A stretch of 56,493 bases of DNA from Candidatus Aenigmatarchaeota archaeon (GTDB lineage: Archaea > Aenigmatarchaeota > Aenigmatarchaeia > CG10238-14 > SCSR01), in the NCBI GenBank assembly GCA_038998585.1, contig JAVZGQ010000005.1, positions 1 to 56,493 on the forward strand. Reading direction: 5' to 3'. Position 1 is the first letter of the stretch. Each line of letters opens with the position of its first letter. The notes under the pieces were generated by a model. The model ran no database searches. It saw nothing but the letters and a program-made list of their open reading frames with translations, and had not been told where the DNA came from. Positions 50,265 to 55,444 of the stretch are shown here, piece after piece. Made by a program: the position numbers and the translations under genes.

Positions 50265-50329
50265 TTCGTACTCACCCTTCCTTCCGGTCAGACGACCAGC
50301 ACCTCATGTAGATAGCGACCGAACTGTCT

Positions 50330-53361: not shown

Positions 53362-53605
53362 TCATTAATATGGTTTCAAATAGACAGTTCGCTCTTCATC
53401 TTTTTTCAGGCGAAAAAATTTTATCATCAACCTCCACTCTTCACCCCTTACTTTTGATAAGGAGTTGCATGTAGCTTGCTCACAAGGTGTCCACATCCTC
53501 ATCTTCTATCAGCACAAAAGGACAAGCTCATCGCTAAATAAAAAAGCCGATGCTTTAATTAAGCGCACATACCGACACCGGCAAAATAATAAGTTGTATT
53601 TTATA

Positions 53606-53620: not shown

Positions 53621-54185
53621 AATTATTAATAATTTTATTAAATTTTTAAATTTTCTTATCGATCAGCAAATGAAGCAAAACCCCTAAAGACCCGAGAAAA
53701 AATGTTTATACAAATCATTTGGAGAAAAAAATTAGAAAGCTTACGATAAAAAGGAAAAAAGAAAATAATAGACAAAATATTTCGGTGAATGAAATTCCTT
53801 TTTCTTGTTTGTATAGATAAATCTAGATTTCTCAAAAACAAAATAGTAAATGTAAATTGGTCCAAACAAAAGAAGGAAAAGTTTATTAAAAATCGAAGAA
53901 TTTTTTCTTTTGAGTATTTCATTAGACTGTCAAAATCAGGAAGAAAACTCTCATAAACAAAAGGGATTGTTATAATAATTATAACTGGAAGAATTTCTAT
54001 TTAAAAAACAAATTGACCAAAATCAAAAAAGGTATTAATGGAAATGAAATTCTCTTAGAGATCCAAAGCGTGAAGGATAAATGTTCTTTAATTTCAAGCC
54101 AAAGTTTTTCAAACGAAAATTTCAAGAACTTTAATTCTCTTGGTAACTCAAGATCAAACGAGATGTTCAACCCACTTTTAATTTA

Positions 54186-54270
54186 TGGACCGGCCGGGAT
54201 TTGAACCCGGAGCCTCGGCTTTGCAAGAGCCGCGATCTTTCATGCAAAGGAACCATTGATCTACCGGCCC
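54186..54270 (-). tRNA. tRNA-Ala(UGC) with 13-nt D-loop intron at 20/21 (54239-54251)
   Basis: G3-U70 pair, anticodon loop CUUGCAA, T loop UUCAAAU. The insert UCCUUUGCAUGAA forms a relaxed BHB on the GAUC/GAUC D stem. Confidence 0.9.
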
Positions 54271-54518
54271 GTTTATAGTAATTATTTAAAATTATAAAAC
54301 TTTAAGCTATTTTTTTAGTATTATTTCTGTTTATATTTTCATCTATCTAGACAATTTTAATTTTATTAAAAATTAATAAACTCTTTTTACTAGAGAAATT
54401 CCTCTCTGAGGTGAAAATTCTTTTCAGGCAGGTTGTTAAAGGTGCCTGAGGTAGGGTCGCAATTATCTTAAGGAGGTGATCCAGCCGCACGTTCCCGTAC
54501 GGCTACCTTGTGGCGACT

Positions 54519-54632
54519 TTAGGCTCCAGGAAGGTCCATTTAAAGGCTAATCAACTCACCTCCAACTCATCATCAATTCAGAGTCAAACCAAACTTTCAT
54601 CTTTAGCCCTAATTTTCTAGGACCTCCAGGAT
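54519..54632 (-). other. 16S BHB intron, 114 nt, between A1492 and A1493, contains C/D-box RNA
   Basis: GGGC/GCCU, bulges UA|A and AA|A, stem UCC.GGAGGUCC/GGACCUUCC.GGA. Splicing restores GGGGCUAAGUCG. Confidence 0.88.
54545..54608 (-). ncRNA. Putative intron-encoded C/D box guide RNA
   Basis: Terminal stem GGCUAA/UUAGCC, C AGAUGA, D' CUGA, C' UGAUGA, D UUGA. D' guide pairs 10 bp with 16S 54697-54706. Confidence 0.8.
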
Positions 54633-54747
54633 TAGCCCCTCTCACAGAACTTCAACTCGACTTGCTCATCGCAAGCCTCGGTGAAGCTCCGCTCGATTGG
54701 CTTGACGGGCAGTGTGTGCAAGGAGCAGGGACTTATTCAGCGAACGA

Positions 54748-54803
54748 GTCCACATCAAAAAGCCGATTTAAAAAATCAATTTAGACTTTTCGGCTCTTTG
54801 ATT
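54748..54803 (-). other. 16S BHB intron, 56 nt, after ~1363
   Basis: Outer helix CGGACG/CGUUCG, central UCAU/GUGG, bulges CA|A and AC|U, 13-bp intron stem. Confidence 0.9.
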
Positions 54804-54848
54804 TGATGACGTCCGCTTACTAGGGATTCCGGCTTCACGAGGACGAGT

Positions 54849-54896
54849 TTGCTGGAGCACTAGCTTTAATAGTAAAAATTTATCTACTAGTACTCT
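54849..54896 (-). other. 16S BHB intron, 48 nt, after ~1318
   Basis: GCUG/CAGC, bulges UA|A and AA|A, stem GAGUACUAG/CUAGUGCUC. Confidence 0.9.
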
Positions 54897-55155
54897 TACA
54901 GCCCTCGATCTGAACTGGGCGCGCTTTTAGGGGATTCGCTTCCCCTTTCGGGGTTGCATCCCTTTGTGGCGCGCATTGTGCGTCGCGTGTGGCCCAGGAC
55001 ATTCGGGGCATACGGACCTACCGTCGCCCACTCCTTCCTCTGGCTTATCGCCAGCGGTCTCCCATGAGTGCACTCTCTCTGAAGAGAGGGTTAGCAACAT
55101 GGGATGTGGGTCTCGCTCGTTAACGCACTTAAGCGCACGCCTCACGGTACGAGCT

Positions 55156-55444
55156 TTATCGTCCTGCCAGCCTCCTTATAATTTCTATTTTAATATTTTT
55201 TAAAGATCATCAAGCTAACTACTCAATTTTTTGATAATTCTTTCTTTTTATTTTGCAAAACATATGAGAAACTTCTTAAATTCTAATTAACTCTTGAATA
55301 TATGTTCATCAGACCCGCTGAACTATTGTATAAACATACTTATCCATCATTTTGTTGAGTTTTTAGTTTTTTGTATTCAATCGAATCTAATTTACAGTAG
55401 AATCTAATTTATGTAGTTTTCTATGTTTTGGAGACTAACAGGAT
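55156..55444 (-). other. 16S BHB intron, 289 nt, after ~1066, AT-rich, no intact ORF
   Basis: AUCG/CGAU, bulges UC|A and AA|A, stem UCCUGUUAG..UCC/GGAGGCUGGCAGGA. Confidence 0.9.

Follow-up and report, generated by a model that had tools for sequence, protein, structure and literature searches.

A probable box C/D guide RNA in a bulge-helix-bulge intron between A1492 and A1493 of an archaeal 16S rRNA gene

Introduction

The pre-tRNA-Trp intron of the Euryarchaeota Pyrococcus (sR50) and Haloferax volcanii is a box C/D small RNA (sRNA) that guides Cm34 and Um39 of its own host tRNA (PMC7994747). In Nanoarchaeum equitans, a C/D-like RNA has been proposed for the 66-nt intron found in its elongator tRNA-Met, in a study that speaks of 'mobile C/D box sRNAs' (Randau 2012, PMC3491384). 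Archaeal 16S introns are described from Thermoproteales and Desulfurococcales at loci 374-1391, with homing-endonuclease genes, their remnants or small hairpins (Jay and Inskeep 2015, PMC4496867), and one of that paper's reviewers raised the question of whether introns might become 'colonised' by genes whose function is essential. Guide-directed methylation has also been predicted at E. coli position A1408 in Sulfolobus acidocaldarius and N. equitans (Dennis et al. 2015, PMC4644070), so the main target considered below is not in itself new. These statements and the comparisons at the end of this paper draw on the accessible portions of the cited texts. Here we analyse a 114-nt intron in the 16S rRNA gene of a Candidatus Aenigmatarchaeota archaeon, and the box C/D cassette that it carries, on a 56,493-nt stretch of DNA (contig JAVZGQ010000005.1 of assembly GCA_038998585.1), hereafter the window.

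An intron with bulge-helix-bulge boundaries

The window is one contig (C5) of a 13-contig, 574-kb (0.57-Mb) assembly (G000) with a completeness of 88%. Its rRNA operon lies on the minus strand, as do all window features described below, and comprises a 16S gene (56493-54471, truncated by the window end) and a 23S gene (53332-49966). Helix 44 of the 16S rRNA measures 168 nt versus 56 in the Rfam SSU_rRNA_archaea model, an excess of ~112 nt. The extra stretch is 54632-54519 (114 nt), the same interval that an original prediction, made from the letters of the window, had given for an intron with a C/D RNA; the coordinates and motifs of that prediction are all present in the sequence as it described them. 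G000 contains a single match to this 16S region. Thus, the sole 16S copy in the assembly is interrupted, and splicing would be obligatory for a working ribosome.

The excess over the Rfam model, the existence of intron-less relatives and covariation together identify 54519-54632 as an intron with bulge-helix-bulge (BHB) boundaries. The central helix H pairs GGGC of exon 1 (54635-54638) with GCCU of the intron (54524-54521), and is flanked by a 5' bulge UAA (54632-54634) and a 3' bulge AAA (54518-54520), each of three nucleotides. The outer helix h' is formed within the intron by UCCUGGAGG (54623-54631) and CUUCCUGGA (54525-54533), as indicated by both the minimum-free-energy fold and covariation. 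The fold of 54648-54505 recovers the central helix, the 5' bulge and h', and its z-score of -1.08 is unremarkable and uninformative by itself. The outer helix h, between the two exons, is weak (GUGA/UCGC, to which the fold adds unpaired bases), so the motif is a relaxed HBh'-like one rather than a full hBHBh'.

In archaeal tRNA splicing the cut falls after the second bulge nucleotide. By this rule, the 5' cut is predicted between 54633 (A1492, the last exon base) and 54632 (the first intron base), UA/A, and the 3' cut between 54519 (the last intron base) and 54518 (A1493, the start of exon 2), AA/A. The run of A residues at the junction allows three cut placements, all of which give one product, GGGGCUA/AGUCG, and it is the rule that places the cut between A1492 and A1493. 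The same splice site had been proposed originally, and it agrees with the relatives: seven intron-less loci from six of them (L014/L030, L017, L019, L020, L023, L024 and L025) have an uninterrupted GGGGCUAAGUCG at the junction.

Introns at this site, which we call site A, keep the BHB pairing while their sequences change. The central helix is paired at 4/4 positions, with bulges UAA and AAA, in all ten site-A introns from genomes. An alignment of homologous introns had been suggested as a check, and we built one from 26 distinct site-A introns, pooling genomes and metagenomes. Standard pairs form in 94.2% of its 416 BHB-helix cells and in 100% of those of the central helix, and in h' nine of the 12 pairs have changes on both sides. 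The observed covariation score was reached by none of 500 shuffles, and sliding the partners by 1-3 columns lowered the pairing to 20-63%.

We identified no homing endonuclease (LAGLIDADG-type) open reading frame in the intron; the longest frame that overlaps it is 36 aa. The genome encodes the splicing machinery, with matches to EndA (PF01974, 92 bits) and RtcB (PF01139, 473 bits). The RtcB match is split (G000:C1:32265-33607, plus strand): its main part covers profile positions 47-426, and positions 1-28 lie ~100 nt upstream, in a frame with one TAG. A second L7Ae-like match (G000:C4:42203-42475, minus strand) contains one TGA. A frameshift, an intron, recoding or an assembly error may account for these two interrupted matches.

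A conserved box C/D cassette

The pattern used for the cassette consists of the end of the D' guide, box D', box C' and the core of the D guide. It matches 48 of the 371 genomes of the phylum, and the reversed pattern used as a control matches 0/371. All matches fall within the order of the window organism (family f1, 38/69; f5, 7/19; f4, 1/23; f3, 1/1). It is on this conservation that the more-than-chance status of the cassette rests. We parsed 54 non-redundant cassettes with an assigned host site, pooled across genomes.

In the window, the cassette is closed by a terminal stem of GGCUAA (54603-54608) and UUAGCC (54550-54545), the sequence of which is not kept among relatives. Between the two strands of this stem lie, 5' to 3', box C (AUGAAAG, 54594-54600), a 12-nt D' guide (UUUGGUUUGACU, 54582-54593; family consensus UGGCUUGACU), box D' (CUGA, 54578-54581), box C' (UGAUGA, 54567-54572), which lies 5 nt after D' and forms a kink-loop (K-loop) with it, a 12-nt D guide (GUUGGAGGUGAG, 54555-54566), and a variant box D (UUGA, 54551-54554). 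The full C/D architecture that had been read in the intron is complete, and its inner boxes are nearly invariant: D' is CUGA in 53/54 cassettes and C' is UGAUGA in 52/54. The outer boxes vary more. Box D is UUGA in 40/54, and AUGA of box C is found in 49/54, 12-14 nt before D'. The C-D' spacer is 12 nt in 41 cassettes, 13 in 11 and 14 in one; the C'-D spacer is 12 nt in the window and in most others, and 13 in L007, L009, L048 and L142. The D'-C' linker is mostly 4-7 nt, with hairpin insertions of 19-37 nt in L009, L011 and L046. Outside the cassette the introns vary freely in sequence and in length (83-161 nt).

The canonical C/D RNA has box C RUGAUGA and box D CUGA, which form a kink-turn (K-turn) with tandem G.A pairs and a G6-C1 pair. 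Box C had originally been read as AGAUGA, three bases away from our assignment. AUGAAAG fits better, since it gives the 12-nt archaeal spacer and its A6 can pair with U1 of the UUGA D box, with both GA dinucleotides kept. The terminal stem pairs as had been proposed but leaves a loop of 4 nt, not 3, for the K-turn; the loop is 3 nt in tRNA-hosted copies such as L032 and L057 (read by eye).

The protein partners of C/D RNAs are encoded in G000, with L7Ae (PF01248), Nop5 (PF01798) and fibrillarin (PF01269) all above the Pfam cut-offs, and the Nop5 and fibrillarin genes adjacent on contig C4. A strict C/D motif scan of the whole genome gave four low-quality matches and missed the cassette; it was too closely tied to the canonical C box, and we dropped it as a census of C/D genes.

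Guide targets in helix 44 and the anti-Shine-Dalgarno tail

The D' guide is complementary to the 5' strand of 16S helix 44. Its segment UUGGUUUGAC forms 10 bp, one of them G-U, with GUCAAGCCAA at 54706-54697 (E. coli 1405-1414), starting from guide position 2, and the predicted 2'-O-methylation site is A1408 (54703). The original prediction for this guide was of the same duplex and the same nucleotide, and the family bears it out. In all 41 cassettes that have their own 16S in the locus the register is fixed: guide position 2 faces G1405, position 3 faces U1406 and position 5 faces A1408. The duplex with 16S 1405-1415 is 8-11 bp long in 38 of the 41, where one G1405-C pair has been added to the computed length.

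The guide also follows a change in its target. At the five loci with A1410 the guide has the opposing U in every case, with three perfect duplexes and two that contain an extra A, and these loci span four genera and two families. G1410 is faced by C at 32 of its 36 loci, by U at three (the window included) and by an extra A at one. The D' guide thus covaries with G/A1410, an observation on related loci and so not a formal test. Am1408 is the likely product of the D' guide as judged from this register. That A1408 is a base of the aminoglycoside site is an anatomical fact and no evidence of function.

The D guide segment GGAGGUGA forms 8 bp without G-U, again from guide position 2, with the anti-Shine-Dalgarno (anti-SD) tail UCACCUCC (54479-54472; E. 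coli 1532-1539), as had been proposed, and pairing with the tail is found throughout the family. With UUGA as box D, the predicted fifth-position base is C1535 (54476 in the window). This had been offered as the weaker of the two predictions, and rightly so, given that box D is degenerate in 7/54 cassettes and the predicted base shifts in other lineages; in family f5 box D is lost and the spacing is shifted by one. The pairing with the tail is conserved and the particular methylated base is not.

Host sites and distribution of the cassette

All 54 cassettes sit in BHB introns, at four sites of the 16S gene and one of a tRNA gene. Ten are at site A (1492/1493), ten at site B (1499/1500), 20 at site C (1513/1514, in helix 45), one at site D (1520/1521) and 13 in the intron of tRNA-Ser(UGA) at position 37/38. 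At each of the 16S sites the local exon sequence forms a separate BHB, whose central helix is paired at 4/4 positions in 10/10 introns of site B, 15/20 of site C (3/4 positions in the other 5/20) and 1/1 of site D. Sites B, C and D all occur within a single genus (g6). At seven loci the Rfam model recognises a tRNA that encloses the cassette (L032, L033, L047, L057, L064, L073 and L143); the other tRNA-Ser assignments (L058, L062, L065, L136-L139, L141 and L210) were read by eye from an anticodon loop of CUUGAG/A, a T arm and acceptor ends. ARAGORN, run on 14 loci, found no tRNA enclosing a cassette, owing to the length of the introns.

In the 16S-hosted copies both guides match the host 16S, and the 13 tRNA-Ser-hosted copies match 16S and not their host tRNA, so host targeting is not a constant of the family. 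Two genomes (G010 and G015) have the cassette in tRNA-Ser and no intron at these 16S sites. Biogenesis of the cassette thus seems to require BHB splicing, but its function does not seem to require this site.

A looser pattern (D' guide, D' and C') finds the D' half of the cassette in tRNA-Ser-like introns of four families of other orders (f23, f24, f30 and f37), and a site-C copy in a fifth family outside the window's order but in the same class. A scan of 185,579 species genomes returned 53 stretches: 49 such introns, three unrelated bacterial ones and one free-standing sRNA. The last is an unannotated C/D sRNA between protein genes (L132:1440-1520) in a metagenome-assembled genome titled Candidatus Altiarchaeota, and it may represent the ancestral form of the cassette. 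Among the metagenome matches listed, which comprise 80 loci, at least 61 of the 67 non-redundant ones are such introns and none is free-standing. Public records with the cassette are mostly titled Candidatus Aenigmatarchaeota, a DPANN lineage.

Several matches were set aside. The three bacterial ones (L082, L090 and L108, in promoter or Shine-Dalgarno regions) and the metagenome loci L147, L208 and L155/L191/L192/L205 are unrelated, having neither GG before UUGAC nor a C box, and L140 (G297), which seems to lie in coding sequence, was given no host site. L115 is titled Hadarchaeum, and its 3-kb contig with a site-A 16S may be mis-binned; the cassettes carried by G103 and G006 suggest mixed bins.

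Other insertions and guide-like units

A second intron lacking the cassette occurs nearby in the 3' minor domain at L016, L021, L043, L069, L070, L072, L055, L056 and L183. For example, L016 has a small one at 1499/1500, family f5 has an GGGCGGCCAGACGAG insert close to 1500, and L055 and L056 have theirs after CACAA. The frequency of such second introns makes the 16S 3' minor domain an intron hot spot in this order.

The 16S gene of the window has at least five further A+T-rich insertions relative to the Rfam model, at approximately 56015-55934 (82 nt), 55831-55652 (180 nt), 55510-55160 (~300 nt, possibly two), 54895-54845 (51 nt) and 54804-54747 (58 nt). Apart from a weak one at 55226, no K-loop of the form CUGA-linker-UGAUGA was found in these insertions. 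In the 16S-23S spacer, a tRNA-like gene with a UGC anticodon region (~54185-54270) seems to hold an insertion in its 5' half; Rfam gave no call for it at the gathering threshold.

Two further C/D-like units lie in the 5' leader of the 23S gene, at 53372-53432 and ~53465-53535. The unit closest to the 23S consists of UUGAUGAUAA, a spacer, CUGA, AAAA, AGAUGA, AGAGCGAACUGUCUAU and UUGA. Over 10 bp, the D guide of this unit perfectly complements 23S 50329-50320 (AGACAGUUCG), which we take to be in the peptidyl-transferase region (~E. coli 2598-2607), with position 5 facing the A at 50327. This unit is kept in the 23S leaders of six relatives (L046, L092, L097, L102, L103 and L107), and L024 has its guide in another sRNA. 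It thus seems that several guide RNAs are encoded in the rRNA operon and share one box style, AUGAnAA/UUGA.

Outside the window, directly 5' of tRNA-Ser(UGA) (G000:C1:138174-138310, minus strand), there is another guide with D'/C'-like boxes, composed of GGUUCAAGGU, CUGA, UAAAA and AGAUGAUGA. It complements the anticodon loop and the first two intron bases, with position 5 facing wobble U34, and a counterpart is found in L032, L057, L058, L062, L064, L073 and L210. The relatives have GACUCAAGG with an intron that starts with UC, and G000 has GGUUCAAGG with CC, a compensating change. The tRNA-Ser(UGA) intron of G000 is 12 nt long and contains no cassette.

Discussion

The window organism probably has, in its single 16S gene, an archaeal BHB intron that carries a working box C/D guide sRNA. 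We anticipate that the pre-16S folds into the BHB, the central helix being formed by exon positions 1487-1490 and an intron segment that mimics their normal helix-44 partner. EndA would cut after A1492 and before A1493, and RtcB would join the exons, restoring the decoding site, with the intron probably circularised. The intron RNA, in cis while uncut or in trans once excised, could bind L7Ae at C/D and C'/D' and recruit Nop5 and fibrillarin. Its D' guide would then pair with 16S 1405-1414 and direct 2'-O-methylation of A1408, and the D guide, on the anti-SD tail at 1532-1539, could methylate C1535 or just hold the tail during assembly. Splicing in vivo, assembly of the ribonucleoprotein (RNP), methylation and circularisation are what we infer from the conserved features described above. 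The fixed fifth-position register, the intact D' and C' boxes and the 12-nt spacers favour methylation, at least at A1408.

Several observations weigh against this interpretation. Boxes C and D of the window (AUGAAAG and UUGA) are off consensus, its terminal stem leaves one loop nucleotide too many for a standard K-turn, and box D is UUAA or UUUA in the seven degenerate cassettes. Searched with a permissive threshold over 54400-55200, Rfam C/D families match only with E values of 0.47-8.5, below their gathering scores (sR2, snoPyro_CD, sR49, sR18 and sR20, 13-16 bits versus gathering scores of 42-50); such a mismatch is expected of a new guide family and has no bearing on how the cassette works. 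The fifth-position base of the D guide varies, being C1535 in the window, one position off in the seven cassettes with a degenerate D box, and C1533 in L132. Three loci (L010, L044 and L056) pair just 6 bp of the D' guide before an extra A. The U-rich D' guide of the window has other 10-12-bp, G-U-rich matches within the window, and with its U for C it also matches domain I of the 23S (CAAACCGAACU, 53087-53077, 11 bp with one G-U), a match that starts at guide position 4 and that the family consensus guide does not have. Since the A1408 match is not unique in the window, sequence alone is only suggestive, and complementarity in a single genome was not used as evidence. In the accessible text of Dennis et al. 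(2015, PMC4644070) 2'-O-methylation of archaeal A1408 is a prediction, and we met no measurement of it.

Sequencing reads add little on either side. None of the public runs contained half or more of the sampled words, and the depth over the intron (54526-54623) was zero in three RNA runs and one DNA run, from which we conclude that the window organism is absent from these four runs. A relative ~93% alike is present at a depth of up to ~95, and its helix-44 differences match G003 and G006 of the same genus. Three reads of this relative in one RNA run (X24), mapped at 92% likeness, skip exactly 114 nt. They are a hint of splicing only, and could stem from an intron-less relative. Joints that skip 177-201 nt were rejected, as they come from the shorter helix 44 of other organisms.

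The main rival explanation, which we consider unlikely though not negligible, is a chaperone or assembly checkpoint without any methylation, in which the pre-16S has its helix-44 5' strand and its anti-SD tail held by the two antisense elements. These would direct how the 3' minor domain folds, or keep decoding and initiation blocked until EndA has removed the intron, and the C/D-like boxes would serve L7Ae binding and RNA stability only. Such a role would suit the better conservation of both antisense elements compared with boxes C and D, the degenerate D boxes and the shifting D-guide nucleotide, the position of all four 16S insertion sites (1492-1521) between the two targets, and the competition of the D' guide with the very helix-44 strand that the intron interrupts. 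Mere pairing, however, does not need the near-invariant CUGA and UGAUGA boxes, the 12-nt spacing or the A1408 register in 41/41 cassettes, as methylation does, and fibrillarin and Nop5 have been retained in a 0.57-Mb genome. A purely cis role is excluded by G010 and G015, which keep the cassette in tRNA-Ser while their 16S is intron-less at these sites.

It is more improbable still that the element is a selfish mobile intron, with rRNA-complementary segments that target its own spread into 16S genes (for example by reverse splicing) and bring no benefit to the host. Its presence in a tRNA gene as well as at four places in 16S, three of them within one genus, does suggest movement, no homing-endonuclease frame is present (the longest over the intron being 36 aa), and Randau (2012, PMC3491384) argues, in the portion available, that archaeal C/D sRNAs are mobile. 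But the insertion sites are not adjacent in sequence to the guide targets, the guide tracks G/A1410 of the host, and tRNA-Ser introns of families f23, f24, f30 and f37 have kept the D' guide together with boxes D' and C', with a free-standing copy in another phylum (L132). That the D' half persists across orders, and the complete design in a second phylum, points to long-term purifying selection on the guide function. Least probable of all, to the point that we give it almost no weight, is a 114-nt expansion segment retained in the mature 16S, with a C/D resemblance by chance. Reads of the spliced form from the window organism are lacking and the Rfam C/D matches are below threshold, both of which fit such a segment. 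Against it, the only 16S copy has the insert between A1492 and A1493; the insert is flanked by a canonical BHB in which compensatory changes occur; the cassette recurs at three other 16S sites and in tRNA introns, each with its own BHB; and the pattern is found in 48/371 genomes versus 0/371 for the reversed control.

Returning to the C/D guide intron that we prefer, a speculative and rather doubtful extension is that the two guides of the RNP themselves decide where the intron is located (a 'guide-intron'). Once excised, and probably as a circle, the RNA would dock at 1405-1414 and 1532-1539 of the 16S, near BHB-competent places in the 3' minor domain, and a reversal of the endonuclease and ligase reaction followed by copying back into DNA would re-insert it. 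Such docking would explain the four sites between the guide targets and the changes of site within one genus. For as long as the intron remains in cis, both the decoding strand and the anti-SD tail would be masked by it, so that splicing would act as a licence barring immature small subunits from translation. The ancestral home could be the tRNA-Ser(UGA) intron, or a free-standing gene such as that of L132.

Archaeal rRNA introns have so far been seen as selfish, as carriers of homing endonucleases or their remnants. The cassette family points instead to a conserved, host-directed function, a guide RNA whose target is the decoding centre of the same rRNA that the intron splits, and would answer, with a concrete case, the question of whether useful genes can colonise rRNA introns. 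The BHB introns that this single guide RNA uses belong to unrelated hosts (four sites of 16S, and tRNA-Ser), and the ends of the RNA would be set by splicing and not by a promoter or nuclease, which is sensible in 0.5-Mb DPANN genomes and parallels the intronic snoRNAs of eukaryotes. Our interpretation predicts Am1408, and perhaps Cm1535, in Aenigmatarchaeota 16S rRNA, a circular intron RNA and its EndA-dependent release. The introns at 1492-1521 fall in what we take to be the region of the widely used 1492R primer site; thus, such organisms may be missed or mis-assembled in surveys.

Comparison with known systems

Like the 16S introns of Thermoproteales and Desulfurococcales, which have a BHB, are removed by the splicing endonuclease and RtcB and lie at or near bulges, the intron described here appears to belong to the archaeal endonuclease-ligase pathway. 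In contrast, the accessible part of that survey (PMC4496867) includes no intron at 1492-1521 and reports no guide RNA. A search of the full-text literature, with subscription journals outside its scope, found no C/D RNA in an archaeal rRNA intron, no introns at 1492-1521 and no cassette common to rRNA and tRNA introns.

The A1408 sRNAs of S. acidocaldarius and N. equitans (PMC4644070, as far as its accessible text goes) share the predicted target nucleotide in helix 44 but are free-standing genes, and we compare them with the cassette by predicted target, not by sequence. The L132 sRNA is closer. It shares the D' guide consensus, a D guide that targets the anti-SD tail, the K-loop of D' and C', and spacers of 12-14 nt, and differs in its canonical boxes (GAUGAUGA, CUGA, UGAUGA and CUGA), in its place between protein genes and not in an intron, and in a D guide whose position 5 faces C1533. 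The elongator tRNA-Met of N. equitans comes from a similar setting, a reduced-genome DPANN archaeon with an active C/D system, C/D genes whose position changes, and a BHB intron that contains a C/D RNA. Its host is a tRNA, however, and the available portion of Randau (2012) describes neither an rRNA intron nor a cassette shared among several sites.

The intronic C/D snoRNAs of eukaryotes likewise derive a guide RNA from the intron of a host gene of the translation apparatus, but they use spliceosomal introns, protein-coding or non-coding hosts and exonuclease processing, and in the part of PMC7994747 available to us the host is never the target rRNA. Most similar in design is the tRNA-Trp intron guide, in that it is a dual-guide C/D RNA in a BHB intron, is released by or acts through the tRNA-splicing endonuclease pathway, and is made together with its host transcript. 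The cassette differs from it in residing in 16S, or in tRNA-Ser in relatives, and in aiming both of its guides at 16S. In the literature searched, intron-borne archaeal C/D guides were previously known only from tRNA introns, and the rRNA-intron host would be new.

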